Of a DNA stretch of 64,000 bases, positions 15,467-62,428 are shown piece by piece (position 1 is the first letter of the stretch; the number at the start of each line of letters is the position of its first letter). Below the pieces are notes generated by a model, which saw only the letters and a list, made by a program, of their open reading frames with translations, did not search any database and had not been told where the DNA came from. Position numbers and translations under genes: made by a program. Origin of the DNA: a virus; IMG/VR virus record IMGVR_UViG_3300025853_008930, positions 16,706-80,705 of that record. One strand, 5' to 3'.

Positions 15467-18016
15467 TTAATCCTCTTTTGGAGGTAATTCAAGACTACTA
15501 TATTTATCTTCATAAATATTCCATAATCCTTTATCAGCATCAGTATCAGCAGGTTTTTGTTCATAGCCTGTCCATGCTAGCCACATTTTCTTTCCTTTAA
15601 CTTCAAGCATTCTAACATGAAGTTTAGTTTCAAACTTATTACCCTCTAAGAAATATTCGTGATAGCCTTCCTTTTGAACACCTAACTTAACATCACCACT
15701 ATCAATCAATTTACGCTTGGATATGTTCTTAGCAACAATAGCAGGGAACTTCCCTGCCTTGCCAAATAGTTCAAAGACATCATCTTGTGAATCTAATCTA
15801 ACCATCCAATTAATGCTTTCATCACCTAACTTCATTACTATGTTTAGGCTATCGTCGTCTCTAAGATATATTTTAAACTCGCCACTTCTGTATTTTTCAG
15901 GTGTCTCATATTCTTTCTTGATAGTGTCCATTAATATCTTATCATGCTCGGCAAACAACTTTTTTGTTTTAGCATCAAAGGATATTCCATCTCTATTTTC
16001 AAACCAATCCTTAACTCTACTTTCTTTGCTTTCTAATATATCTTGATATTCTTTTTTATTATTCTTTACCAAAAAGTTGTGAACTTCTTTAGGAGTCTTT
16101 GCTCCTTTCTCTTTCAAGTAATTAAATATAGCAACAGTAAGTTTAGATTGTTTCGTTTTCATTATCTCTTCTGCTTGTTCTTTCCACAAGTCTAAATCCA
16201 TTAAGGCATTTTTAGCCATTAGATTATCTTGCTCAAAGCCATAGATAGTAAAACCATCCATATCGCTCTTAATTATAATGCTAGCCTCACCGTGAATATG
16301 GTCAGTAATTACAATGCCTTTCTCTACTTCTTCTACATTATATTTGAGAGACTTGTCAGTATCATTGATTAGCATTTGTAATGTAACTAATTTATCCGGT
16401 GTTTTACTTTCTGCAATCTCAGTTATCTTTGCGGAATAAACTACAGGCTTACCCTTGACTTCTTTTACCTTATCAATAGAGACTCTAACTACTTCTCCAA
16501 CATCTGCTGAAACTTTAGTGTTAGTAGCACTACCAACTTCAAGATAGTTTACTCCTTCTATCTTTTCATCTCCTTCTTCAACCGGCCCTGCCCCTAATTT
16601 GTAAGAAAAGTTAGAACCGTTTTTCTTTTTATCAAGAACAATTAAATCTAGTTCTACAAATGGTTTCCAACGAATCCACTTAGGATTCTTTTTCGTTCCC
16701 AAGAAATATGTAGATGTAGAATCTTTAATCATAGCCCCTTCTGCTGTTGGTATTTCCATAATTTTCTTAGCATATTCTTCAACATCTTTTAGGCTGTCTG
16801 CAACCCTAGTATCTTTTTTAGATGGGAATGTTAAGTCCTCACTAGAATGTATAGAATAGTTGTTAAACATTATTTGCATTCTATTTTGTAGCGTATCTTC
16901 CATGAGGTTTTCTTCATTGTGTCTCATAATGTCAAACACATGAATTCTAACCTTGCCTTCTCTTTTTCCCTCTAAGTATTCTGCGGCTTCTTTTCTTTTA
17001 AGAGAATCTTCTCCGTCAAATAAAACTAAAGAAGCATCTAAGATACAATCACCAAAATGTTTTTTCTTTAGTTCCTCAACTGCTTCTTTACACTTTGATG
17101 TAATGTCTTTTCCTGTATAATCATAGACTTTTATATTCTTATCTATTTTATGTAATTGAATTCTAAAACCATCGTATTTTTCTTGAACATAAAACTCACC
17201 ACTAAATCCCTTTAGTTCGTTCATATCTTCTATTGTAAATATTCTATACATTGGTTTGTTAGGGATTATGAAATCACTTTGGGCTTTTTCTTCATCGGAC
17301 TTCTTTTCTTTTAGAATAACTTTATCGTCTTGTTCCTTATCTTTAGTGGCTTTTTCTTCATCCATATCTGTATCTATGTCTTCTAATTCAGCCCACTCTT
17401 CTTTAGTGTTTTTAGATAAGAATATTAATTCTAACATATTCATAGCGGCTTTTACTTTAGCCTCTACTTTTTTAGAGTCTTTACCATCACCATAATGTTC
17501 TATAATGTAAAGTGCAACATCATCTACTTCTAGGTCTAATCCCATAAGTCCTTCTGTGATGTCATCCGGTTTCATATCTTTAATTGAATATGCTTCTTTT
17601 GGTAGTGCTTTATCATCTTCTCTAATAGCATAATGAACAAACTTAATCATAAGTTCGGGTGATTCTAATAATGCTTCTAATACATTGCCTTTGAATTTTT
17701 TAGCGAAGGGGTCACTAACTTCTTCCGAAGAATACCTAAGTGCCTTTATTGCTTCATACAATTTTTCAGCATTATTTGTGCTAACATCGGAGACATCATC
17801 CGCCTCTAATAAGTCATCATCAATATAATCCTTGAGTTCATTTGAAAGAGCATCCGTCATTTCATATGCGTCTTTAATTCTATTTACTGCGTTTCTCCAT
17901 TTAGAACCGTATTCCTTTGGGTCGGTTCTTGCTGAAAGATAAGCGACTCTCGTTCTTTCAAAGAGTCTTAGAATATCTGTGGATATTGACTTATCCTTCT
18001 CAATAAGGAGAGGCAT
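15467..18016 (-). CDS. ATP-dependent DNA ligase-like multidomain protein in the head module
   Basis: QEKYDG (motif I), LDASL, VFDIM, EGAMIK, WIRWK, OB-like region; extra N- and C-terminal domains. Confidence 0.8.
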   Translation of the reverse strand: MPLLIEKDKSISTDILRLFERTRVAYLSARTDPKEYGSKWRNAVNRIKDAYEMTDALSNELKDYIDDDLLEADDVSDVSTNNAEKLYEAIKALRYSSEEVSDPFAKKFKGNVLEALLESPELMIKFVHYAIREDDKALPKEAYSIKDMKPDDITEGLMGLDLEVDDVALYIIEHYGDGKDSKKVEAKVKAAMNMLELIFLSKNTKEEWAELEDIDTDMDEEKATKDKEQDDKVILKEKKSDEEKAQSDFIIPNKPMYRIFTIEDMNELKGFSGEFYVQEKYDGFRIQLHKIDKNIKVYDYTGKDITSKCKEAVEELKKKHFGDCILDASLVLFDGEDSLKRKEAAEYLEGKREGKVRIHVFDIMRHNEENLMEDTLQNRMQIMFNNYSIHSSEDLTFPSKKDTRVADSLKDVEEYAKKIMEIPTAEGAMIKDSTSTYFLGTKKNPKWIRWKPFVELDLIVLDKKKNGSNFSYKLGAGPVEEGDEKIEGVNYLEVGSATNTKVSADVGEVVRVSIDKVKEVKGKPVVYSAKITEIAESKTPDKLVTLQMLINDTDKSLKYNVEEVEKGIVITDHIHGEASIIIKSDMDGFTIYGFEQDNLMAKNALMDLDLWKEQAEEIMKTKQSKLTVAIFNYLKEKGAKTPKEVHNFLVKNNKKEYQDILESKESRVKDWFENRDGISFDAKTKKLFAEHDKILMDTIKKEYETPEKYRSGEFKIYLRDDDSLNIVMKLGDESINWMVRLDSQDDVFELFGKAGKFPAIVAKNISKRKLIDSGDVKLGVQKEGYHEYFLEGNKFETKLHVRMLEVKGKKMWLAWTGYEQKPADTDADKGLWNIYEDKYSSLELPPKED

Positions 18017-26320: not shown

Positions 26321-26640
26321 TATGCTCCCTTCCTCCTTTTGTAAGTTTTACAAGCGGCACAAGTTGGCCTACATCTTTGTTTAGTTCCTTTAGAAGCATC
26401 CGGTCTTCCGCAAGGTTTTGTTCCTTTTTTATCATCTTCACATGATTGACAAGAAACCCAACCTTTTGCTTTACCACTACCGCCTCTTCTTTGAAACCAT
26501 CCATGAAGACCGGACTCTTTTTCTCTCTTGAAATTGTCTCCGCCCTTTCTTCTTTGTTTCTTCTTATATCTTTTAGCACCGCTTCTTCTTCGAGCCTTGC
26601 TCTTTTTTTGAAGAATGTCCTGCCATGTCATATTAATCAC
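26320..26640 (-). CDS. W-tag basic Cys-rich protein (MTWQDILQKK)
   Basis: ORF track; motif. Confidence 0.6.
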   Translation of the reverse strand: MINMTWQDILQKKSKARRRSGAKRYKKKQRRKGGDNFKREKESGLHGWFQRRGGSGKAKGWVSCQSCEDDKKGTKPCGRPDASKGTKQRCRPTCAACKTYKRRKGA

Positions 26641-26867
26641 TTCTTAGATTTGTTGCCCCAATTATCCGCACCAACTTTACGACATCTAACTAAAGCACCG
26701 CTAGCATAAGCGGAAGGCCACTTATCATATCTGCTACGAACTTTGTAATAACAAGCATCTTGTTTTTTATCGGACTTACGATTTCTGCGGCCTTTTTTCT
26801 TAGCCCGCTTAGAACCTTTTTTTCTTCGAGACTTACTCTTTTTTTGAAGAATATCTTGCCAACTCAT
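26637..26867 (-). CDS. W-tag highly basic protein (MSWQDILQKK)
   Basis: ORF track; motif. Confidence 0.6.
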   Translation of the reverse strand: MSWQDILQKKSKSRRKKGSKRAKKKGRRNRKSDKKQDACYYKVRSRYDKWPSAYASGALVRCRKVGADNWGNKSKK

Positions 26868-39310: not shown

Positions 39311-39760
39311 TTAACTCTCCATCGCATTCTTATCTTGGAAACCCCTACTAAATCCCTGCTCAAAGTCTATTCGCTTAACTTCTTTAACCGCACTAGTAGT
39401 AGGGTCGTCTTTTATTTCTTTAAATCTCATAATAGCCAAATCTACAAAAGATTCTATTCCTTCGGGAGTCAATCGCATTATAGTATCATTTTTTGGACTG
39501 TTGCCCCCGAAAAGGTCTACTGTTACAAAGGGCGTATCATCTTCCCCTGTGTCAATAAAAGCAATTTCATATGCCTTATATGAATGAGGGTCTTGTAATT
39601 TGCCGTGAGGAATTGACCCTAATCTATCTCCTGCTACCACGCTTAATTCTAAATCGGGTGCAATTTCAGTTCTTGAGTGATAGCCTCTCCTGTCATTATA
39701 CGGCTTAAACTCAATATCTTGGAATCTAAATTGTTTCTTAAGAATATCTTGCCAAGTCAT
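39311..39760 (-). CDS. W-tag protein (MTWQDILKK)
   Basis: ORF track; motif. Confidence 0.6.
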   Translation of the reverse strand: MTWQDILKKQFRFQDIEFKPYNDRRGYHSRTEIAPDLELSVVAGDRLGSIPHGKLQDPHSYKAYEIAFIDTGEDDTPFVTVDLFGGNSPKNDTIMRLTPEGIESFVDLAIMRFKEIKDDPTTSAVKEVKRIDFEQGFSRGFQDKNAMES

Positions 39761-41255: not shown

Positions 41256-41612
41256 TTAGTTATAATCAAATAAACTAGTATTCTTAGTTTCTTTAACTTC
41301 ACCCTGCATAGTTATTTTATGCTTGGCTTTAACATCTCTAATGTATCTTAGTAGTGTGTTTAACTTAGTTTTAAGCCCTTTTAACTCACTATCCAATTCA
41401 TCAGTATATTCATTACCCTTAGTTTGAGTTTCTTTAAGTAACTCTCTAAGTTTTTGTGATATTGTATTTAGCCTTGATAATAAGCCAAAGTCAATATCCT
41501 TACTAATGCAACAACCTCCTTTGAAGGGTCGTAGTAATATAAGGGTAATAAATGTAGTAGTTTTATGGGTTAATATGTTATACACAGTAGTTAATAGGTC
41601 AAAATTAACCAT
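41256..41612 (-). CDS. Hypothetical coiled-coil protein (start uncertain)
   Basis: ORF at the strand switch. Confidence 0.35.
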   Translation of the reverse strand: MVNFDLLTTVYNILTHKTTTFITLILLRPFKGGCCISKDIDFGLLSRLNTISQKLRELLKETQTKGNEYTDELDSELKGLKTKLNTLLRYIRDVKAKHKITMQGEVKETKNTSLFDYN

Positions 41613-41747
41613 GAATGCTTATATTATTCAAAATTAACAAAGAAAAAAATTTTGGAACAAAGCCATATGGTTGTAGAGCAACCGATTAACAAGCATATGG
41701 TTCACTTTGCGGAACCCGCCATATATACTTTACAGGAATGAGTAGTC

Positions 41748-42131
41748 ATGTCACTGAACATAGTATATCAAAGAAGCATAAAAGAGGAGAACGAAGACAG
41801 TATTGAGATAAGTTGCTGTAAAGAAGGCAACGAATATTGGGCATATGCCTTAAAAGTCCTTACTTCAATAGCCAACAAGTCAAACACACGGCCACACATC
41901 TATTTTGATTGGGGAAAGAGTAGTAAATGCACCATGAGAGTAGCGGGTTCTTGGAATGCCGAAAGCATGAGTAGTTTCCTAAGAAAAGCATCAAGCAAGA
42001 GAGCAATCGAAAGCGGTCTTTTCAATGGTCGCAGAACTTGGGTTTTCAATCATAAAACTGAAGAATACGAGCGAGTGAATGAAGAAGATGTAGATGCTTT
42101 ACCTAGAGATACCTACGCTATGATGGAGTAG
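41748..42131 (+). CDS. Cassette 1 hypothetical protein
   Basis: ATG about 25 nt after the TATA-like element of the repeat. Confidence 0.65.
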   Translation: MSLNIVYQRSIKEENEDSIEISCCKEGNEYWAYALKVLTSIANKSNTRPHIYFDWGKSSKCTMRVAGSWNAESMSSFLRKASSKRAIESGLFNGRRTWVFNHKTEEYERVNEEDVDALPRDTYAMME

Positions 42132-42140
42132 ATAAATACG

Positions 42141-42190
42141 GTTAAAAAAACCCTGCAAGGTTTCGGCCTTGTGGGGTTTTACCTTTTTTT
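42141..42190 (+). terminator. Hairpin + T-tract terminator (family also at about 42925, 43688 and 47021)
   Basis: GGTxAAAAAAAC-stem-loop-GGTTTTACC followed by T-run. Confidence 0.75.
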
Positions 42191-42315
42191 GGTCAAGGTT
42201 TGGTGCTTACGCTACGCTCTAAATTCATTATATAAATTACATTTATTATATGAATTTACACCAAACCATATGGTTCACTTTCGGAACCCAGAATATATAT
42301 CTTCCATCAAGGAGT

Positions 42316-42520
42316 ATGTGTCTAGCCGGCATAATAGACAAGAACAGACCGGAGTTAAGCGGCCTATCGGCTTAACACTATGGCCTAATGACGAGAGGAA
42401 ACTTGGAATAGAGGTAAAGTGGCTAGAAAAACATGGCGATGGATATGAACGCCCGTATCTAACAAATCAAGTGTTTTTTGCAGGACTAGGGGATATAGGC
42501 TCTCCCCTAGTCCAAGTTTT
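42316..42520 (+). ncRNA. Cassette 2: putative small structured RNA
   Basis: Promoter and terminator but no convincing ORF; tctagcc/ggctaga (42321/42421) and gttaagc/gcttaac stems. Confidence 0.4.
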
Positions 42521-42626
42521 TTTATCGAGGTTTGGTGTCGTTATATATTATAACGGTGAATGTGACACCAAACCATATGGTATGCTTTCAATACCCGTTT
42601 CATATAGTTGTATAGTAATAGTATGC

Positions 42627-42914
42627 ATGTCAGTAGTACAAAAACCGATTAGGCCTAATATTGAAGATTACCAAATTGATAGTGAAAATGATTGGATTGA
42701 AACATTTTGGAGAGATATGGAAACATATAACAATGAAATGAGATTGTGGAATTTTCGCCAACAGTGGTTAAGTGAATATGGAGTAACTGAAGAAATGTGG
42801 ATTCAAACACCTGTTGAACTTCAGCGAATTATGGTCGAGTTACATCATGAATGTGAGAAGCAAAATCAACTCATGTATGACCTTGAGGAATGGCGTGACT
42901 CAATGCCCATTTGA
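42627..42914 (+). CDS. Cassette 3 hypothetical acidic Trp-rich protein (start MSVVQKP)
   Basis: ATG placed after the repeat promoter; the longer ORF-track start crosses two boundary elements. Confidence 0.65.
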   Translation: MSVVQKPIRPNIEDYQIDSENDWIETFWRDMETYNNEMRLWNFRQQWLSEYGVTEEMWIQTPVELQRIMVELHHECEKQNQLMYDLEEWRDSMPI

Positions 42915-43084
42915 GGCATTAGTCGGTCAAAAAACCTCCCTTGCTTTCGGGCTTGGGAGGTTTTACCTTTTTTTATTGAGGTTTGAGGTCGTTTTAATTA
43001 ACTTACTAGATAGTAACCTCAAACCATATGGTTCACTTTAGGAACACGAATTATATATTATATCTATATTAGAGGGTAGAAAGA

Positions 43085-43495
43085 GTGATTAAAATGGTGT
43101 GCGAAGAATGTGGAAGAGGATTGAGATATAATACAGAAAGCGGTTTATGTAGTATGTGCATGAATGATTTAATAGACGAGACGCTAGAGCGTTTTATGCA
43201 AGAAGAGTATAAGGCAGAAGGCGAAAAGGTGTTTAAATGCCCTAAGTGTAATCGCTTAGACTGTATTCAAGGAGACTTTGTTTTGAATGATTGGGAAGAG
43301 TTTAAACCTATACTAAAACCGACAAATACTGATATGTGGTGTCAATATATGTATAAGGGTAAAATGGTTCAAGGTAACACTTTACTGGATGAAATTCAGG
43401 AGTTAAGAATGGAATGCAAGTATTGTGGATATGACTTTGACGGCCAAGACGACGAACTTAACAACAACACAGTTATTACTCATGGAGGTGTCTAA
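43085..43495 (+). CDS. Cassette 4 multi-CxxC Zn-binding protein
   Basis: CEEC, CSMC, CPKC, CKYC. Confidence 0.65.
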   Translation: MIKMVCEECGRGLRYNTESGLCSMCMNDLIDETLERFMQEEYKAEGEKVFKCPKCNRLDCIQGDFVLNDWEEFKPILKPTNTDMWCQYMYKGKMVQGNTLLDEIQELRMECKYCGYDFDGQDDELNNNTVITHGGV

Positions 43496-43497
43496 TA

Positions 43498-43680
43498 ATG
43501 ATAGTAATAACAGGTTGGGCAGTTTGGGATAATGAGGCATGGAGGACAGATTTTCGGAACATATACCCCACAAAGGAACTTGCTATGGAAGCGGCTAAAA
43601 AGCATTATAGTTACTTAGGAGACACAGAAGAAGACTATGGCGACCACATGATAAGTCCGGTTGAAATAACGGTTCATTGA
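43498..43680 (+). CDS. Cassette 4 second small protein
   Basis: GGAGGTG SD; followed by a terminator. Confidence 0.6.
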   Translation: MIVITGWAVWDNEAWRTDFRNIYPTKELAMEAAKKHYSYLGDTEEDYGDHMISPVEITVH

Positions 43681-43837
43681 GTTAAACGGTAAAAAAACCC
43701 CTTGTTTTTAGGAGCAAGGGGTTTTTACCTTTTTTTTATTGAGGTTTGAGGTCGTTTTATACTTATTACTGTTAGTAACCTCAAACCATATGGTTCACTT
43801 TCGGAACTCGGATTATATATCGAACAGGGTGGAGTAT

Positions 43838-44312
43838 GCATGTCGGGAGTCATGAACCGGCAGGGATTGACCGAACACCCTATTGAACGGGGGTAAGGTG
43901 CAATGTTCCGAGTAGTTTCGGCTTATGTAATTATGATGCTCTAATGAGTGAGTTTTTACCTCTAAGAAAAAGTCCTTGAACCTCAAAAGGGGAGTTATTA
44001 CTAGTAACTTGGATAACATTGGCAGTATGGCTCTTAAGAATCAAAGAATCAAGAGAGCGTTCAAAGTGAGTGCGACCCAATCGTATCATACTTGAAGATA
44101 CCCAACTCTTCATCCCATCCTATTCCAATGGCTATTAGTGGCCATAACACCATTGAGAAACAAAGGCGAAAGTCAAAGTTGAAAATGTAAGGCGGCAGAA
44201 AATAGAAAGAGATTGTAAGTTATCTAAATACTAGTTAGTTAGTGACCTCTCATCAAACCTACTAAGCATCACGCATTCCCTTGCTTTGAACGAGTAGCCG
44301 GAGTTTCTCACT
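43838..44312 (+). ncRNA. Cassette 5: putative ~470-nt structured non-coding RNA
   Basis: No sizeable plus-strand ORF between promoter and T-tract; nested 5'/3' pairings. Confidence 0.55.
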
Positions 44313-44460
44313 TTTTTTATCGAGGTTTGGCATCGTTATTATTATGAATTACTTTACCTATGGTAATGCCAAACCATATGGTTCACTTTGAGAACACGGT
44401 TCTTATACCGAATCATAGGTAGTAGTCGCTTCAAGGGGTTGAAGTGTAATTATCATTGAG

Positions 44461-44946
44461 GTGAAAATTATGAATTTGGAAAAACTAGAAACTAATAGAA
44501 ATAACATACGAACATGGATGAAGGAAAACGAAAGCCCGCTTAATGATGCTTTAGAGGGTCTACTCACAGCATCGGAGTTGGCTAAAACTGATGATGAGGC
44601 GGTCAAGTATTGGTCGTCAATTCGTTCACTTTGTGGCAACATGAGTCCTTCTCCTGTTAGAAAAGGTGTGCAATCAAAATACAGTGTCGAGCAATTGGCA
44701 GTATTAGACGCTATTGGAACAGAAGTTGATGAGGCTTCTGTCCGCTACCACAACGACGGTATTATGTCTAAGGTATTGTTTTCTCACGGTAAATCCGGTG
44801 GAAAAACTATGCTTGCAGAAGTATTTGGTAAGACTATGAGAAATATGACCATCAGCAAACTTAAGAAAAAGTTAGATGCAGGAATATGGGATGGAACTCT
44901 AGCCGGTTTAGACTCCTTGACCGAAACAACGGAGGATAATGAGTGA
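44461..44946 (+). CDS. Cassette 6 protein, WDGT paralog family member 1
   Basis: YWSSIRSLCGNM.SP.RKG ... GIWDGTL. Confidence 0.75.
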   Translation: MKIMNLEKLETNRNNIRTWMKENESPLNDALEGLLTASELAKTDDEAVKYWSSIRSLCGNMSPSPVRKGVQSKYSVEQLAVLDAIGTEVDEASVRYHNDGIMSKVLFSHGKSGGKTMLAEVFGKTMRNMTISKLKKKLDAGIWDGTLAGLDSLTETTEDNE

Positions 44947-45185
44947 TTAACATTTCAACCCCTTGTTGCCCCCACTCCCGATTAGGCCGAATAGTGAAAC
45001 TACTCTTACAGTGCAGTAAATAAGCACTTCTTAAGAGATTTGAAAAAATAGTTTCACTATTCGGTCTAAGTTTTTTTATTTAGGGTTTGATGCGGCCTTC
45101 GGCCTAAATGTTTAAAGAACATTTCATCAAACCATATGGTTCACTTTAAGAACCCGATTGATATATCTATTGGCATGGAGATAAC

Positions 45186-45533
45186 ATGCGAAAAATAACA
45201 CAAGACGCAATAAGAGCATTTGAACAGCATAAGAAATTTAAGCGAAGCAATACCGAAGTTGAAGTAAGTGGAAGCGGATTATTTGCCGAACTAAAACTAC
45301 ATGGGAATACAATCGCCAAAAGTGGAATATTTGAAGGTTTGATGATTTCATCAGCCGGATGGAATACCAACACCACAAAAGAACGCTTAAACGGATTTGA
45401 TGGAGTTCACATCCATCAAAAAGACTTCACATGGTATTTGAATGGCCGTGAATGGACAGGCGAATGGGTTGATGTTGATGATTTCACCAAACACGGCCAT
45501 TATTGTCAATTCGTTGGCGGAACATCATTCTAA
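45186..45533 (+). CDS. Cassette 7 hypothetical protein
   Basis: LHGNTIA...AGWNTNTTKERLN; promoter and terminator present. Confidence 0.7.
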   Translation: MRKITQDAIRAFEQHKKFKRSNTEVEVSGSGLFAELKLHGNTIAKSGIFEGLMISSAGWNTNTTKERLNGFDGVHIHQKDFTWYLNGREWTGEWVDVDDFTKHGHYCQFVGGTSF

Positions 45534-45754
45534 TTATGAACTGATATAGTTTGAGGACTATAACTGCCTTTCTCGACCCTTCGGGGTCGGGATTGGCTTT
45601 TTTTGGGGTTGTGAGTAATGTATTTTATAATACTAGGGGAGTATTACTCACAACCATATGGTTCACTTTGAGAACTTGATTCATATACTATTAAGGAAAT
45701 AGTAGTTGCTTCACGGGGTATGAAGTAAACTTACAAACATCGGAGTGATAAAAA

Positions 45755-46264
45755 ATGATGGAATATAGTAAAATAATTAGCAAAACAGACGATATATTGA
45801 CTTGGCTTGATGTCAATGATGCAGGTGCTTTGGATAGTGCCATTCGAGGCATCATTGCAGTTGCTAGAGTCGAAGGACAGACAGAAAAACAATACGGTAA
45901 CTATTGGGGTAGTATTCGCCAAATGTGCGGCAACCTCCCAAACTCACCTATCCGCAAAGGAACTCAACCGTCACTACCTGTCGAAGCACAAGCGGTTGTG
46001 GATTCTGTAATGACTCAAGTAACAGATGCTTTTGCGGGTATTACTGAAAACACTGGACTACTTCTTGAAGTTATCCTACCTTTCAGAAATACAACCGGCA
46101 AAGGCTTTGAGTCTATGGATGACCTAGCCGCATATATGGCAGGTCGAGCCCGTGATGCATTAATTAAGGCTCATAAAGATGGTCGTTGGGATGGAACTCT
46201 TAACGACGGACTAACAGGTATGACCCCTCCTCAACCTGCATCAAAGAAGGAGGCTAGTAAGTAA
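45755..46264 (+). CDS. Cassette 8 protein, WDGT paralog family member 2
   Basis: YWGSIRQMCGNL.SPIRKG ... GRWDGTL. Confidence 0.75.
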   Translation: MMEYSKIISKTDDILTWLDVNDAGALDSAIRGIIAVARVEGQTEKQYGNYWGSIRQMCGNLPNSPIRKGTQPSLPVEAQAVVDSVMTQVTDAFAGITENTGLLLEVILPFRNTTGKGFESMDDLAAYMAGRARDALIKAHKDGRWDGTLNDGLTGMTPPQPASKKEASK

Positions 46265-46519
46265 GGCTAACCGATTACCCCGTGTTGCCCCTCTACTAAA
46301 TTAATTCAACAAATAGCACCCAAAGGACATTACAACTCATACAGTCAAGAGAGTTCACGACTTCTTATGAGATAGTAAAAAATAAAGTGTCCTTTGGGTG
46401 TCTATGCTTTTTTTATGCAGGGTTTGAGGCGTAGAATAATATTCAACAAAAGAATGTGCCTCAAACCATATGGTTCACTTTCGGAACACAATTGATATAC
46501 GCCTCGACCTATAGATACC

Positions 46520-46792
46520 ATGACGGTAATAGATTGGCATGAGCAAGTAAGAGAATACAAAAAACACTATGATGATGATGATGGGATTCATGAATATATA
46601 GAAGGGTTACTCCCTGTATATTTCGGTGACATCAACCAAGTATATCATGATGAGATAGGAACACCTCTCAATATTGAGATTGAACCTCATCATGTCGGCC
46701 TTGAGTTTTGGCGAATAATGATAGGTCATATTTTCGAGGAATATGTTGAGAAATTCTTAGAGGCTTGGCATGAAGTAGAGGAGGAAGAGTAA
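46520..46792 (+). CDS. Cassette 9 very acidic small protein
   Basis: D/E-rich, 90 aa. Confidence 0.65.
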   Translation: MTVIDWHEQVREYKKHYDDDDGIHEYIEGLLPVYFGDINQVYHDEIGTPLNIEIEPHHVGLEFWRIMIGHIFEEYVEKFLEAWHEVEEEE

Positions 46793-47011
46793 ATGATACC
46801 GAGATGGAACGACGAAGTTTATCCGGTAATATCTTCCTTAGACGGTTTCAATAATTCAGCAATTGAAGCGATATGTAGCACATACAAAGACGCAAAAAAT
46901 TATGTTGCTAAATTAGAGAGTAGAGAGGCGTTAAAGGGTCTTGAGTTCGCTATCCTATGCTTCGACATAATAGAATGCGGGGAAATAGTAGACAGTAAAA
47001 TACTGGAATAA
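46793..47011 (+). CDS. Cassette 9 second small protein
   Basis: Coupled ORF followed by a terminator. Confidence 0.6.
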   Translation: MIPRWNDEVYPVISSLDGFNNSAIEAICSTYKDAKNYVAKLESREALKGLEFAILCFDIIECGEIVDSKILE

Positions 47012-47129
47012 ATCACACTCGGTCAAAAAAACCGGCTATCTTTCGGGGTAGTCGGTTTTTACCTTTTTTTCGAGGTTTTGTGCAGTTATTATTTATTTAA
47101 CCCCTTGACAGTTGCACAAAACCATACCA

Positions 47130-47650
47130 CATTATAACCATAAGCCTTCACTTGGTAGCAACAATTACTACCCAAGATTCCCACACCCTCGATAATATTA
47201 TTTTCAATTGAGTGTATAAATAATGAAAATAATAATAAAAATATCAATATCATATACTATATAATAGTAAGAAAAACATTATTTTGGGTCAGCAGGAGGA
47301 GTGAAAATAAAAGTGAAAATAAAATTCTTGAAGGTAAAGGGGAATAACTGTGAAGTTATTATATAATAAATATATTATTTTATTATTTTATTATTTTCAA
47401 TACTACTCTCTTTCTTCCCTCCCCTCCTCGATTTTTACTGTCAAGATTCTTGAGGGTTATTTTCCAAAGGATTTTTTTTCTCTCTCGGAAGCAGGGCAAA
47501 ATAATGAAAATAACAAAATATTAGAGCAGTTGCCCGTTTAGCGTTCAAAATAATCTAAAAATAATCCAAAATAATAACTTGAGTTGGCAAAGTTCATCTA
47601 AATCAAAATAGAAATAAAGGCTTTCTTTAAATGTAATTTAAACGGTAGGA
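47130..47650. other. AT-rich non-coding region with many AAAATAA repeats; candidate replication origin
   Basis: Multiple (G)AAAATAA copies in both orientations; upstream of the helicase gene. Confidence 0.4.
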
Positions 47651-47656
47651 TAAAAC

Positions 47657-48127
47657 ATGGAAGAAGATAAATGGGAAAATATCAAATTAGATGTAGTTGA
47701 ATACCTAGAATCGGGGGCAGAACTTTCTGTTGGATTGAGGCAAGTAATAGAATTAAACTTGCAGGTTGGAGATAATGACGAAAAGGCTAGAACAGGTGTG
47801 CTTAAATCATTGAAAGCGTTGCTAAGTGGTAAGGAAGGAACTCCTTTCCACAAGGGTAACAAGAGCGACCTCCCTGCTAAGGTGAGGGTCAATGTGCAAA
47901 AGTTAGGTAAGATAATGCATGGTGCTTCAATGGCATATATGGAATATGACGAATTGATGCAACTCATCACACCACGACATAAAAAATCCGGTGGTGGTTT
48001 CTATAAAACTCACAAAGAGTTCGCTAATGCTAATAAGAAGAGACTGATGACGAGGCTCAAAAAAGAATATCGTTTAGGTCTGTGGGATGGAACAATAGAT
48101 GGTTTATTGCCTCTTGAAGAAGAGTAA
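47657..48127 (+). CDS. WDGT paralog family member 3 (divergent)
   Basis: LSGKEGTPFHKG, KSGG, GLWDGTI. Confidence 0.7.
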   Translation: MEEDKWENIKLDVVEYLESGAELSVGLRQVIELNLQVGDNDEKARTGVLKSLKALLSGKEGTPFHKGNKSDLPAKVRVNVQKLGKIMHGASMAYMEYDELMQLITPRHKKSGGGFYKTHKEFANANKKRLMTRLKKEYRLGLWDGTIDGLLPLEEE

Positions 48128-48175
48128 TGTCACTATAGGTCATTTTTAGCCCGTCGGCATCCATCCGAGTCGGCC

Positions 48176-48370
48176 TTTATATAGTCAAGGGGAGGGAGGA
48201 GGCAATCGGGTCACTCGGTGACTCACCCCCCAACCGTAACTTGAGTAGTGAATCTACTCGACTTACGCTCACGGTTGAATTAGTTTAAAGCAAGGGGCAA
48301 CAAAGAAGTATATCATTTGATATTACCATGTTTCGGGGGGAACATGCGATGCTTAACTAATTCAACCACC
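48176..48370 (+). ncRNA. TATA box followed by a multi-hairpin RNA/leader
   Basis: TTTATATA at about 48177; stems gagtag/ctactc and ggttgaattagtt/aactaattcaacc (13 bp). Confidence 0.45.
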
Positions 48371-48389
48371 TCACACTCCCCAAATAAAA

Positions 48390-49835
48390 ATGGTGATAAA
48401 AATGATAAAAGGAACAATAGAACAAGATGAAATATGGAATGAAATAACAAACACAACCAATGATGTAATAGTCAATGCCGGTGCAGGAACAGGTAAGACT
48501 TTCACAATCGTAGAAGGTGCTAATAGAGCAAATGAAGTAAGAAAGGGTTTTCTATGCTTTAACAAATCTATTCAAACCGAACTACAAGAAAGACTACCCG
48601 AAGGTGTAGAGGCAAAGACATTTCACGCATTGGGTATGAAAGCAGTTAGAGATGTAGTTGGTAAAACTAAAGTAAACAATTGGAAAGTAAAGAATATCAT
48701 TGATACTATTCTAGGCCGTGACTATCACGCACAACCACTTGTCAAACTAATTAGTCTAATCAAAGGCTCAATGGTTGATTGCACTAACGAGCGAGAAATC
48801 TACAAATTAATTGATGAATATAATATTCAATTTCACGATGACCGAGAAGAAGCACTAGGTGTTAGCGTTGTTTGTCAAATACTTGACGAATGTAAATCAA
48901 TCACTCATGAAATTGACTTCGATGATATGATTTGGCTACCACTAGTCAATGGTTATCCTCTACCACAATTTGATATTCTATTCGTTGATGAAGCACAAGA
49001 CTTCAATGAAATGCAAAGACAACTAGTTTTGTCATGCACTAAAAACGGTAGATGTATTATTGTTGGTGACAAGAATCAAGCAATCTATGGCTTTAGAGGA
49101 GCAGATAGCGGTAGTATTGCTATCTTCAAGAATCAACTAGAAGCAAGAGGTAAAACTGTTGTAGAGTTTGGTTTGACTCTAACATGGAGATGTCCTAAGT
49201 TAGTGGTTGCAGAAGCAAACAGATATGTCAAAGACTTCAATTGTTTAGAAACTGCTGAAACAGGTAATGTTCATGTTAATGCGTATCTAAACCCACAGAA
49301 GGGTGACATGGTATTATGCAGATATAATGCACCATTAGTTAGTGCATTCTATGACTTGATTACTCAAGGTAAATCAGCATATATTCTAGGCCGTGACATG
49401 CACAAAGGTTTGGTAAACTATGTCAAAAAGATTACCAAGAACGAAGGTATGTCATCCGAGGAATTTTGCGAACTACTTGAAGTAAGTTATAATGCTGAAT
49501 ATGCTAAGTTGCTTAAGGCTGAAAAGCAAAACCAAGCAAACACACTTAGCGATAAATATGAATGTATCAAGATATTTGCTAGTAAGGCAAACTATGTTGG
49601 TGGCATTATCAAAGAAATCGAAAAACTGTTTAACAGTAAAACAAGAGGCGATATTAAATTATCAACTGTTCACAAGGCTAAAGGTCTTGAGGCTGATAAT
49701 GTATTCATCTTAGCAACTGAAAGAATGCCACATCCAAAAGCATCTAATATGCAAGAGGAAAGAAACATTTGTTATGTTGCTATAACAAGGGCTAAGAAAA
49801 ACCTATATTATTGTGGCCCAAGACCAAAGAATTGA
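48390..49835 (+). CDS. UvrD/Rep-like superfamily 1 helicase
   Basis: AGAGTGKT, VDEAQD, VGDKNQAIYGFRGA, STVHKAKGLE, YVAITRAK. Confidence 0.93.
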   Translation: MVIKMIKGTIEQDEIWNEITNTTNDVIVNAGAGTGKTFTIVEGANRANEVRKGFLCFNKSIQTELQERLPEGVEAKTFHALGMKAVRDVVGKTKVNNWKVKNIIDTILGRDYHAQPLVKLISLIKGSMVDCTNEREIYKLIDEYNIQFHDDREEALGVSVVCQILDECKSITHEIDFDDMIWLPLVNGYPLPQFDILFVDEAQDFNEMQRQLVLSCTKNGRCIIVGDKNQAIYGFRGADSGSIAIFKNQLEARGKTVVEFGLTLTWRCPKLVVAEANRYVKDFNCLETAETGNVHVNAYLNPQKGDMVLCRYNAPLVSAFYDLITQGKSAYILGRDMHKGLVNYVKKITKNEGMSSEEFCELLEVSYNAEYAKLLKAEKQNQANTLSDKYECIKIFASKANYVGGIIKEIEKLFNSKTRGDIKLSTVHKAKGLEADNVFILATERMPHPKASNMQEERNICYVAITRAKKNLYYCGPRPKN

Positions 49836-57520: not shown

Positions 57521-57729
57521 AAGCAGTAGGAAAATGGGTATTAGTAGAAAAAGTAAATGAAAAGAGTGGGGCAATCATATCTAAAGTAGATAACAAAGGC
57601 GTAGTTGTAGACTGTCGCTGTGATAAAAACTTGAGAGATAAGATTGTCTACTTTAATGAAAGAAAAGATTATGTTAAAGTGAACGACTTTATTGCAGTTC
57701 ACTATGATGATATATTGGCGGTGGAATAA
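57517..57729 (+). CDS. groES: GroES-like co-chaperonin
   Basis: MKAVGKWVLV..SGAII...DILAVE; adjacent to GroEL. Confidence 0.75.
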   Translation: MKAVGKWVLVEKVNEKSGAIISKVDNKGVVVDCRCDKNLRDKIVYFNERKDYVKVNDFIAVHYDDILAVE

Positions 57730-59240
57730 TGATAATACATGGCAATGAAGTAAAAGAAAAGTTATTACAAGGAATAGACATAGTAGCGAATACAGTAAAG
57801 CCCACACTTGGGCCACAAGCGAGAACAGTAATATTACAAGGTAATCCTCCGGTAGTAATTAACGACGGAGTTACAATTACTAGGTATATTAGTCACGAAG
57901 ACCCTTATGTTCAAATGGGCATTCAGTTAGTGCAGAATCTAGCAAGTAAAGCACAAGAAGGTAGTGGTGATGGAACTACCACCGCTTGTATTCTTGCTCA
58001 AGCACTATGTCATAATATGTTAGATGCACCGGAAATGAATGTTCATCAGTTTAATAGTTTGATTAATACTTTGAAAGAAAAGACAACCTTTCATTTAGAC
58101 CAAGCATCGGAAGAAGTCGAGGATATAGATATACTTGGAGTAGCAACCATAGCGGCAAACAACGATAACAAACTAGGTATGTTAATTGCTGATGCAATAA
58201 ACAAAGTTGGCCGTGATGGTATTATTACTGTGGAAGAATCTAAAACACACAATACTGATATTGTTGTTAGGGAAGGTTTAGAGATTGATGAAGGCTACAT
58301 GAGTCACCTTATGGCTAATAGCGAGGATGGTAAATGCACATTCAGCAACCCACTAATCTTCTTATCTAATTTAGCGATTAGAAACTTTAGTGAGATACTA
58401 CCTATGATGGAACATGCGGCAAATAACAAACAACCTCTAGTTATATTCTGTAAAGGGATGGATGGTAATGCTATGAATAATGTAGTTATGAATCTATTAC
58501 AGAAGACAATAGAAATTGCTGTAGTTACCGCACCTAACTTTGGTGATGCTCAATTAGATGAGTTAGCCGATATTGCAGGTGTTGTTGGTGGAACTCTTTA
58601 CACAGATGAAAGCAAAGATGACCCTAAAGAATTACATGCACATACTTTCGGAACTTGTGATAGTATTACTATTACTAAAGATAAAACAATTTTTGTGGGG
58701 GGTAACAGACCACTAACAGAAAATAGAATAGCGACACTAAAAGGAACTTATGAAGATAGTCAAGACGAATATGATAAACTTAGACTTAAGAAAAGAATAG
58801 CAAGACTTAGTGGTGGCGTTGCTACCATTAGAGTTGGTGCTTCTTCATCTATTGAAATGAGAGAAAAGAAAGAAAGGTTAGACGATGCTCTTAACGCTAC
58901 AAAGGCCGCACTAGAAGAAGGTATTATTGTTGGTGGTGGATTAACTCTAGCGAGAGCCGCCAAACAAGCAACAAAGACAATGAAGAATGCTAAGTGGTTT
59001 GAGTTAGCCATGCAAGAACCTATCAAAGTATTACAAAGAAATAGTGGTATAAATACACCAACTGTTAATTTTGGTAAAAAGAACATAGGTTTCAATGCAC
59101 TTACAGGTAAGACCCAAGACTTGAAAGCGGCAGGTATTTTCGACCCTGTTAAAGTTACTAAAAATAGTTTCTTAGCGGCTATGTCTATCGCACAACTTTT
59201 CTACTCTACTGATGTAGCGGTTTTGTTACCGGAGGAATAG
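57729..59240 (+). CDS. groEL: Group I chaperonin (GroEL-like)
   Basis: TLGP, NDGVTI, GDGTTT, DALNATKAA.EEGI..GGG, GIFDP.KV. Confidence 0.93.
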   Translation: MIIHGNEVKEKLLQGIDIVANTVKPTLGPQARTVILQGNPPVVINDGVTITRYISHEDPYVQMGIQLVQNLASKAQEGSGDGTTTACILAQALCHNMLDAPEMNVHQFNSLINTLKEKTTFHLDQASEEVEDIDILGVATIAANNDNKLGMLIADAINKVGRDGIITVEESKTHNTDIVVREGLEIDEGYMSHLMANSEDGKCTFSNPLIFLSNLAIRNFSEILPMMEHAANNKQPLVIFCKGMDGNAMNNVVMNLLQKTIEIAVVTAPNFGDAQLDELADIAGVVGGTLYTDESKDDPKELHAHTFGTCDSITITKDKTIFVGGNRPLTENRIATLKGTYEDSQDEYDKLRLKKRIARLSGGVATIRVGASSSIEMREKKERLDDALNATKAALEEGIIVGGGLTLARAAKQATKTMKNAKWFELAMQEPIKVLQRNSGINTPTVNFGKKNIGFNALTGKTQDLKAAGIFDPVKVTKNSFLAAMSIAQLFYSTDVAVLLPEE

Positions 59241-60895: not shown

Positions 60896-62428
60896 ATGAT
60901 AGATTGGAAAATGATGAGCCGGTTGTTAGAATCCACGAAGGGAAAGACACCAACAAAACAAGTAAAATTGATAGCAACAGAACTAGATAAGTTCGATACA
61001 CATAAGAGCGCAGTAATACAATTACTTGCTAGAGAATATCCTAACAATAACATTGGTTTGGCTAAGGCTAAGTCTTGGCTTGCTAAGATGTTTGATTGTT
61101 TTGATGATGAGATAGAAAGCCTATTCGCTATTGATGATGAATTGGGAGAGGCTATCTATATGTTAGATACAAGTGCAGAAACAGAACGAAACATAAGTAT
61201 AACTTCTGTCTTAAGAGTTTTAGAAACTAATTGTGGTGCTGTAGACGATTCTTCTTATCTCTTAGTTAAAGATGTATTATCAAATATGTCAGCATTAGAA
61301 AGAAGGTGGTTTGTTAGATATTGGATTCGTTCCCCTACTAATGGAATAGACGAAGGAGTAGTTAAGAAAGTATTAGCAAAACATTACGATAAGAAACTAA
61401 GTGAAGTTAAGAAACATGCTAACTTCAATACCTTGTATAATGTTACCATGTATTATGAAATGAAAGAAGACCCTCCGTGTAATTTATCACATGGTTCTTT
61501 TGTAAAACCAATGCTAGCAAAGGAAGTTCTTATGAATAAGTGGCCGGAAAATAAGATAGTAGATTACAAGTATGATGGTAACAGATACCAAATACACAAA
61601 CAAGGAGATAATGTAATTATTTTTAATCGTAAAGGCTCTATCGTTACTCCACAGTTTCAAGATGTCGTAGAGACAGTTAGACAGTATGAAGTAGATTGTA
61701 TTCTTGATGGTGAGATATATCCAATTAAGGATGATGGTTCACCTGCTGAACATAAACTAATGGGAACAAGAGTTCATTCTAAAGACCACGCAGAAGCAAG
61801 AGAGAGGGTTAAAGTCAAGTGGGTTATATTTGATTGCCTTAAAATCGGTAATGAAACTATAATGGACTTATCTTATAGCGATAGATTAGGTAAGTTTTCG
61901 CAACTCCCCGACCAAGCACATAGAATGGAAGAGGGCGGTGATGTTCTAGCATTCTATAATAGAGCGATTAACGATGGTTTTGAGGGCATTATTGTCAAAG
62001 ATACTAATTTACCCTATGAGGCAGGTAAAAGAAGCGCAGGATGGGCTAAATACAAGCCTCCTCGCATTGAATTAGATGTGGCTATTACTACTGCTAAATA
62101 TGGCGAAGGCTCAAGAGCAAATGTGTTTGGAACTTTTGGTATTTCTGTAAAGAGTGATAGTGGTTTCAAATCAGTAGGTTCTATCGGAACGGGCTTTAGT
62201 GATGCTGATTTAGTTTGGCTAACTAATGAACTTAGAAAGAATGTAGAGACTTACAACAATGGCACATACAATTTATTACCGAGAGTTGTCTTAGAAGTAT
62301 CAGCAGACTTAGTTACTCAAGATGCAAAGGGCAACTATGGATTAAGATTCCCACGATGTAAAAGAATACGGCATGATAAGTTTGTTGCTGATATAAATAC
62401 AATAGAAGATGTGGAGAGACTACTATGA
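60896..62428 (+). CDS. lig: ATP-dependent DNA ligase
   Basis: KPMLA, YKYDGNR, LDGE, IFD, EGIIVK, WAKYK, LRFPR. Confidence 0.95.
   Translation: MIDWKMMSRLLESTKGKTPTKQVKLIATELDKFDTHKSAVIQLLAREYPNNNIGLAKAKSWLAKMFDCFDDEIESLFAIDDELGEAIYMLDTSAETERNISITSVLRVLETNCGAVDDSSYLLVKDVLSNMSALERRWFVRYWIRSPTNGIDEGVVKKVLAKHYDKKLSEVKKHANFNTLYNVTMYYEMKEDPPCNLSHGSFVKPMLAKEVLMNKWPENKIVDYKYDGNRYQIHKQGDNVIIFNRKGSIVTPQFQDVVETVRQYEVDCILDGEIYPIKDDGSPAEHKLMGTRVHSKDHAEARERVKVKWVIFDCLKIGNETIMDLSYSDRLGKFSQLPDQAHRMEEGGDVLAFYNRAINDGFEGIIVKDTNLPYEAGKRSAGWAKYKPPRIELDVAITTAKYGEGSRANVFGTFGISVKSDSGFKSVGSIGTGFSDADLVWLTNELRKNVETYNNGTYNLLPRVVLEVSADLVTQDAKGNYGLRFPRCKRIRHDKFVADINTIEDVERLL

Follow-up and report, generated by a model that had tools for sequence, protein, structure and literature searches.

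Why would an early phage gene begin with a sequence that is complementary to the one just behind its own stop codon? This question is raised by two paralogous genes of the WDGT family, here called gene 1 and gene 2, which lie in a 64,000-nucleotide (nt) stretch of viral DNA (the window; positions 16,706 to 80,705 of IMG/VR record IMGVR_UViG_3300025853_008930). The record stems from an uncultured marine virus and is linear, 80.7 kb long and of an estimated completeness of 86%. An initial annotation made from the sequence alone had described both genes as cassettes with complementary flanks, each followed by a long stem (44983-45068 and 46313-46405). The coordinates and motifs that it gave were all correct, as was its description of the similarity between the leaders and tails of the two genes.

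Pairing of leader and tail in the early mRNAs

Each end-paired WDGT gene forms a transcription unit by itself, bounded by an early promoter and a terminator of its own. The two units in the window consist of the following features, with transcription starts placed by promoter spacing at approximately 44415-44417 (gene 1) and 45696 (gene 2).

Gene 1 unit (44374-45078)
44374-44409, plus strand: early promoter with the CCATATGGTTCACTTT motif and a -10-like TATACC at 44404-44409
44418-44458, plus strand: leader, 5' strand of the end pairing, with a weak outer helix, conserved CGCTT (44427-44431), core CAAGGGGTTGAAGTGT (44432-44447) and an inner extension to 44458
44470-44946, plus strand: paralog 1, end-paired class of the WDGT family, 158 amino acids (aa), acidic
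44936-44973, plus strand: tail, 3' strand of the end pairing; its inner part overlaps the stop codon, the core lies at 44950-44965 and TGTTGCCCC follows directly at 44964-44972
44983-45078, plus strand: tail module with a long covarying hairpin (44983-45068) around an inner motif (45002-45048), then a U run that forms the terminator

Gene 2 unit (45654-46416)
45654-45689, plus strand: early promoter with a -35-like TTCACT and a -10 TATACT at 45684-45689
45700-45735, plus strand: leader with outer helix TAGTAG (45700-45705), conserved TGCTT (45707-45711) and core CACGGGGTA (45712-45720)
45755-46264, plus strand: paralog 2, end-paired class of the WDGT family, 169 aa, acidic
46267-46298, plus strand: tail with core TACCCCGTG (46276-46284), motif TGTTGCCCCT (46283-46292) and outer helix CTACTA (46293-46298)
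46313-46416, plus strand: tail module with a long covarying hairpin (46313-46405) and an inner motif (46335-46382), then a U run

The leader of gene 1 contains caaggggttgaa at 44432, which is complementary to ttcaaccccttg at 44954. This pairing had been annotated as 12 bp; the pairing itself stands, but its uninterrupted extent is 16 bp (44432-44447 with 44950-44965), well above the null obtained with shuffled tails. In gene 2 the leader sequence cacggggta at 45712 pairs with taccccgtg at 46276, and this 9-bp core is marginal when taken alone (score 24, against a shuffled-tail null with a mean of 17, a 95th percentile of 22 and a maximum of 28). The predicted messenger RNAs (mRNAs; 44415-45078 and 45696-46416) were also folded as a whole. 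End pairing was present in both the minimum-energy and the centroid structures of the two transcripts, with the ribosome-binding site (RBS) and AUG free, and the z-scores of the folds were -6.1 and -6.0 for genes 1 and 2. For gene 1 the helix in both structures comprised 27 consecutive pairs between 44432-44458 and the tail.

Homologs on contigs of marine viruses and metagenomes were then used to analyze the end pairing. Of the loci fetched for the gene 2 group, 19 were viral and 80 came from metagenomes; they were later joined by 79 loci around the neighboring helicase gene. Leaders and tails were anchored by sequence motif alone (xGCTT followed by C in the leader, TYGCNNC in the tail), which keeps the alignment unfitted to the structure, and pairs were counted by a script using these anchors; a whole-gene MAFFT alignment placed gaps inside the helix strands, and an alignment of all subfamilies was too divergent to serve as a seed for locus searches. 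The 65 genes that could be anchored contain 20 distinct 9-bp helices with 18 distinct 5' strands. Across the first nine helix positions of these 20 helices, 180 of 180 cells hold standard pairs. Combining leaders with foreign tails gave pairs in 68% of the cells and nine of nine in only 2.7% of the combinations, and sliding the register by one or two bases reduced the pairing to 3.4-4.4 of 9. Three to six pair types occur at each of positions 2-4 and 7-9. Mean duplex energy was -45.5 kcal/mol with the own tail, compared with -30.0 for foreign and -27.1 for shuffled tails. The core helix contains nine G.U pairs and no A.C pair (18 versus 0 with looser anchoring), and therefore selection has acted on pairing of the plus-strand RNA, not on an inverted repeat in DNA. 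Compensatory changes throughout the family, the G.U/A.C asymmetry and the whole-mRNA folds thus bear out the annotated complementarity, its preservation in further homologs and the proposal that the mRNA is closed end to end. As far as sequence comparison can establish it, the early mRNAs of the end-paired WDGT class are closed at the RNA level, and this closure is conserved.

Clades that lack the anchor motif have other helices of 11-21 bp, the longest of them at locus L019 (21 bp). Examples of the variation from locus to locus are CACAGGGUA/UACCCUGUG, CUUGAGCGAA/UUCGCUCAAG, CACCGGCGAA/UUCGCCGGUG and GUUCCGGCAAGG/CUUGCCGGAAC, and paralogs within one genome also differ in their end helix. The core measures 9-21 bp, and its inner pairs extend up to and across the stop codon. 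Outside the core, the first bases of the transcript form an outer helix, UAGUAG/CUACUA in gene 2, which is swapped for AAGAG/CUCUU in relatives. The AGTAGT that had been regarded as a conserved leader element is present in both genes, but is merely one variant of this covarying helix. Core and outer helix are separated by a conserved junction, in which leader UGCUU lies opposite tail UYGC and two G-C pairs surround a U-U or U-C mismatch. On the 5' side the paired sequence lies exactly between transcription start and RBS, on the 3' side exactly between stop codon and terminator. The third-class paralogs, which are basic and located directly upstream of the helicase gene, show no end pairing above chance. 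A 9-bp match between leader and tail of the third paralog (ATAAAGGCT/GGCCTTTAT) was at chance level and discarded; it probably reflects the repeated promoter-like word CTTTATATA.

The same 5' element can also pair locally. In most clades the conserved UGCUUC pairs with a GAAGY a few bases downstream (44429-44434 with 44439-44444 in gene 1, 45709-45713 with 45721-45725 in gene 2). As GAAGY belongs to the strand that pairs with the tail, hairpin and long-range helix are mutually exclusive. A few compensatory variants of the hairpin occur (GCUUC/GAAGY, CCUCAA/UUGAGG, GUGUC/GACAC and GGCUCAA/UUGAGUC). The annotated idea of a switch holds in a weaker sense only, in that it fits this competing local hairpin.

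In many clades the junction motif is followed by a long hairpin, and 12 of the 22 pairs in its outer stem have changed on both sides (8 sequences). It encloses an inner motif that approximates AACUCWUA, a small hairpin, UUCUUAWGAGA, four bases and AAAAAA. The pattern ACTCWTA..TAWGAGA..AAAAA occurs twice in the window compared with an expectation of 0, and the motif lies approximately 70 nt behind the stop codons of the family in the fetched loci, wherever positions were compared. A conserved sub-structure within the long stems, as proposed initially, was thus confirmed. Other clades have plain terminators, yet keep the helix and the junction motif.

Tail motif and helicase leader

The sequence TGTTGCCCC behind the stop codon had been noted as a conserved flank. 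It is indeed shared by both genes (44964 and 46283), but its significance goes beyond that of a flank, as it is complementary to and covaries with a second structured RNA, termed X here, which forms the leader of a UvrD-like helicase gene.

47657-48127, plus strand: paralog 3, second class of the WDGT family, 156 aa, basic; directly upstream of RNA X
48273-48367, plus strand: RNA X, structured leader of the UvrD-like helicase gene (ATG at 48390), with an outer stem of 48273-48285 and 48355-48367

The outer stem of X covaries, with eight pairs changed on both sides among five sequences. Within X the segment GGGGCAACA (48294-48302) is unpaired and is the reverse complement of TGTTGCCCC; it is followed by a conserved GAAGT. 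The 8-10 nt directly 3' of the core helix are complementary to the unpaired X segment of the same genome. Approximately ten lineages, represented by genomes in which one contig carries both the tail motif and X, show concerted changes of the two.

Tail motif and X segment of the same genome
tail motif UGUUGCCCC (window phage), X segment GGGGCAACA
tail motif UGUUGCCACU, X segment AGUGGCAACA
tail motif UGUUGCGCC, X segment GGCGCAACA
tail motif UGUUGCACCC, X segment GGGUGCAACA, or GGGUGCGACA with a U.G pair
tail motif GUCGCCCC, X segment GGGGCGAC
tail motif UGUGGCCCC, X segment GGGGCUACA
tail motif AAGCCCCAU, X segment AUGGGGCUU
tail motif UAUGCCCCCU, X segment AGGGGGCAUA
tail motif AGGCUCCA, X segment UGGAGCCU

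The summed score of the own-genome combinations was 339, compared with 282 +/- 11 after permutation of the genomes, and none of 20000 permutations reached 339. Complementarity to X offers an explanation for the constancy of the junction motif inside an otherwise variable helix. In addition, GAAGU of X could pair with GCUUC of the leader, and these elements are ordered and spaced as expected for a three-way junction at the base of the core helix. A further pairing, between ACTTCTT of the tail inner motif and AAGAAGT of X, was rejected, as it is not kept in the L012/L128 genome.

Several other sequences were observed that resemble X or lie close to it. On the minus strand at 26631-26660, approximately 20 nt upstream of the ATG of the next late gene, GGGGCAACAAATCTAAGAAGTGA resembles the X segment (GGGGCAACA...AAGAAGT) and is thus a possible further target for the tail motif. 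A copy of GGGGCAACA is also present at 39499-39507, inside an open reading frame (ORF), and looks like a chance occurrence. The conserved word CTTTATATA is found upstream of the third-class paralog (approximately 47614-47632) and again about 50 nt after its stop codon (48174-48183), ahead of X, as well as in loci L111-L113. It may mark a second type of promoter, a middle one, from which the helicase mRNA is transcribed together with its long leader. Directly after the outer stem of X (48368-48392) lies a conserved CCACCUCAC...AAAUAAAAAUGGUGA, in which CACC could pair with the GGUG of the helicase RBS; this would make a possible on/off element for translation of the helicase. In eight loci (L135, L136, L139, L141, L151, L153, L154 and L177) a tRNA-like sequence (T-arm GGTTCGAA / GGTTCAAAT) separates the helicase gene from the third-class paralog or from X, and no tRNA is present in the window itself.

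Proposed mechanism and rival explanations

We favor the reading, with a probability of roughly 55%, that an end pairing of the hok tac/fbi type is joined in these mRNAs to an RNA-RNA link with the helicase leader. In hok mRNA the 5' tac element is held first in a metastable hairpin and pairs later with the 3' fbi element (PMC9841398). The local 5' hairpin of the WDGT mRNAs would likewise form first, during transcription, and would be displaced by the C-rich tail once this has been made. The closed form would bury the 5' end and join the regions of start and stop, and could in this way set stability and translation of the early mRNA. A paired 5' end shields bacterial mRNAs from 5'-end-dependent decay; such protection is presumed here because the transcript starts within a few bases of the outer helix. 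End pairing would accordingly serve the control of stability, processing or timing. The exposed junction motif would then dock with X, possibly in a three-way junction to which GCUUC of the leader and GAAGU of X contribute as well, and docking would link, one way or the other, what becomes of the early mRNA with expression of a replication gene, the helicase.

A more specific proposal is made only tentatively. Closed early mRNAs and X might form a defined mRNA-mRNA complex, in which X spans the base of the end helix, using GGGGCAAC for the tail and GAAGU for the leader, and a three-way junction arises. Such a complex might time, at the RNA level, the change from early to replication genes, and cleavage by a ribonuclease (RNase) might in addition free the structured tail as a small RNA. 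Every paralog would have its private helix, and one docking motif would be shared. If this is true, the phage possesses a regulatory circuit made of pairing between messenger RNAs. The match between tail and X together with the end pairing points to an RNA-based control circuit previously undescribed in phages, and the link to the helicase leader, if true, would represent direct cross-talk between early and replication-gene mRNAs. For bacterial mRNAs, end pairing has been described in a handful of individual cases, namely hok, aapA1, icaR and hbs. Its retention throughout a family with dozens of helix sequences provides a natural mutational series for studies of closed mRNAs. As leader, tail and X are short and modular, the model could be tested with reporters in a laboratory host despite the lack of a cultured phage.

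The resemblance to hok/sok-type toxin mRNAs, including aapA1/IsoA1 of Helicobacter, lies in the long-distance helix that links the untranslated regions (UTRs) at the 5' and 3' ends and closes the full-length mRNA, and in a separate RNA that pairs with the mRNA (PMC9841398, PMC5416894). A further point in common may be a metastable hairpin that occupies this 5' element as long as the 3' end has yet to be made, for which the local hairpin is the candidate in the WDGT mRNAs. Four differences exist. Toxin mRNAs encode membrane peptides of 30-50 aa, whereas soluble acidic proteins of 158-176 aa are encoded here; the RBS is sequestered in the closed form of hok, but free here; in place of a cis-encoded antisense RNA, the putative partner is a leader that belongs to a different gene at a distance of 2-4 kb; and X would pair with the 3' flank of the helix and not with the translation start region. 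A Sok-like antisense promoter within gene 2 is not conserved: the one promoter-like site on the minus strand (45816-45789) stems from conserved codons, and homologs do not keep its -10 part. In icaR of Staphylococcus aureus and hbs of Bacillus subtilis, pairing of 5' and 3' UTRs within one mRNA controls decay or translation (PMC3868564, PMC5737220). These are single genes in single species, in contrast to a whole family with at least 20 helix sequences here, and the 3' UTR of icaR covers the RBS and creates an RNase III site there, whereas the RBS is uncovered in the WDGT mRNAs.

A number of observations weigh against the favored reading. In the folds of genes 1 and 2 the helix stops just upstream of the RBS, which is not sequestered, and thus the closed form is no obvious translational lock, unlike those of hok and icaR. 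The statistics of the local hairpin are modest (mean stem 6.5 bp, compared with 4.85 bp when the downstream sequence is shuffled). Three genomes (L152, L160 and L177) have end-paired genes, but no match to X in the DNA fetched. The match between tail and X could come from a DNA motif that is bound by one protein in either orientation, and only two wobble positions favor RNA over DNA. For the proposed helix between leader GCUUC and X GAAGU covariation is uninformative, as both words are invariant where present.

Of the other explanations, the one that survives best, although we consider it rather unlikely, is that the end helix serves mainly as substrate of an RNase specific for double-stranded RNA, such as RNase III. 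Through a putative cut within the conserved internal loop it would shorten the mRNA and free the tail as a 3' UTR-derived small RNA, with the seed UGUUGCNNC at its new 5' end, which would act on X. RNase III stems in ribosomal RNA precursors consist of two helical segments that flank an internal loop and arise from sequences bordering the mature RNA on both sides, and in phage T7 early mRNAs the RNase III sites are local hairpins located between cistrons. 3' UTR-derived small RNAs, such as CpxQ and SroC, carry a conserved seed upstream of a structured region and the terminator of the mRNA, and this seed is complementary to another transcript. The WDGT mRNAs resemble the former in that core and outer helix lie on either side of the conserved 2x2 internal loop in all clades, with the approximately two turns of double-stranded RNA expected of an RNase III stem and 27 consecutive pairs in the fold of gene 1; they differ in that the pairing encloses the whole coding region, and cleavage is a proposal. 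They resemble the latter in the layout of the tail, with a seed, a covarying scaffold hairpin with an A-rich internal loop and a terminator U run, and in the complementarity of the seed to X with covariation. In contrast to CpxQ and SroC, the seed stands at the foot of the end-pairing helix, its target is an internal loop of a structured leader and not an RBS, and release of the tail is again a proposal. A duplex of 5' and 3' UTRs that is cut by RNase III is known from icaR (PMC3868564). However, clades with plain short terminators retain helix and seed without the scaffold hairpin. The explanation also overlaps with the favored one, the sole difference being that cleavage is required.

It is improbable that the helix with its conserved UGCUU/UYGC internal loop is an operator for the encoded WDGT protein. 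Autogenous control of this kind would explain why structure and gene family are inherited together, and both their strict linkage and the constant sequence of the junction motif in an otherwise freely varying helix agree with it. The constancy of this motif is, however, already accounted for by its complementarity to X. Furthermore, the end-paired paralogs are acidic, with isoelectric points (pI) of 5.2-5.3, and their all-helical AlphaFold model contains no RNA-binding fold and has no informative match, and the sequence belongs to no Pfam or PHROG family. The acidity is evidence against binding of the protein to its own mRNA, short of excluding it, and RNA binding by the protein, for which the initial annotation had suggested a test, found no support.

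Action of the complementary flanks in DNA, either as inverted repeats of a mobile or recombining cassette or as repeated sites of a DNA-binding protein, is very improbable. The genes do lie within an array of promoters and terminators that varies in number and content between genomes, and sites of one DNA-binding protein would covary within a genome and mimic the covariation of tail motif and X. On the other hand, G.U pairs without A.C pairs are expected only for pairing of plus-strand RNA, a helix that differs between paralogs of one genome leaves no shared recombination site, and the exact placement from start to RBS and from stop to terminator argues in the same direction. The earlier suggestion that protein and RNA travel together as a cassette therefore holds only in the sense that leader, helix and structured tail are inherited with the gene family and occur nowhere else in the window; mobility of such a cassette at the DNA level is disfavored. 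The circularisation considered in the initial annotation, here taken as covalent ligation of the paired mRNA ends, is likewise disfavored and hardly credible, and neither it nor back-splicing found support. The helix does juxtapose the 5' and 3' regions and two phage proteins have ATP-dependent ligase domains, but the 3' end lies another 50-130 nt beyond the helix, past the terminator structure, and no splice-like or ribozyme motif was found with Rfam.

Protein family and genome setting

The WDGT family comprises 92 cluster representatives in public marine data, which fall into three groups: a large group that resembles gene 2, a small group that resembles gene 1, and a group that resembles gene 3. 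The family has a median pI of 5.1. End-paired products of 158-176 aa are helical and soluble and are not small hydrophobic toxin peptides. No usable family for the WDGT protein was found in Pfam, PHROGs or PADLOC. Prediction of the protein structure, which had been suggested initially, yielded an all-helical AlphaFold model (predicted local distance difference test, pLDDT, 88) without an informative fold match. Foldseek against the PDB returned no match at E <= 0.001, VIA-align only generic three-helix bundles (residues 1-64, Z <= 8), BFVD only two unnamed viral proteins and ESM Atlas nothing usable.

The genes at 1-41500 are encoded on the minus strand and those that can be identified are structural, for example a tail tube protein. 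From 41600 onward the plus strand carries the early and replication genes. The promoter motif CCATATGGTTCACTTT occurs in eight copies within 41693-46481, compared with an expectation of 0.06. Each copy is followed by a -10-like TATAYY and each unit closes with a terminator, and therefore this region is an array of short early transcription units. A GGTTTG...CAAACC hairpin precedes each of the eight promoters, right behind the preceding terminator. A weaker ninth copy is located near 42563, and the palindrome CCATATGG and the word CTTTG of the array are retained in distant relatives. Two further units (42285-42530 and 43805-44320) run from promoter to terminator without a plausible plus-strand ORF and are candidates for non-coding RNAs of approximately 230 and 500 nt. 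The longer candidate recurs with its 3' half (approximately 44110-44200) downstream of gene 2-type genes in three other phages (L013, L074 and L077). Rfam gave nothing at the gathering score for the whole window and, at E <= 1 for 41600-48420, only chance-level matches, none of them on leader, tail or X.

The collection of phage records contained no DNA or protein match to the window, and no cultured relative was found; the helicase is only approximately 33% identical to helicases from phages of Bacteroidota and others. Ahead of the third paralog lies an AT-rich stretch of 560 nt without genes (47090-47650), which contains runs of AAAATAA-type repeats and, near 47107, a near-consensus promoter-like site (TTGACA...TATAAC). 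The two proteins with ATP-dependent ligase domains are encoded at 15467-18016 (minus strand, 849 aa), among the minus-strand genes, and at 60896-62428 (plus strand). The phage also carries a gene for a chaperonin of the Cpn60/GroEL type at 57729-59240 on the plus strand.

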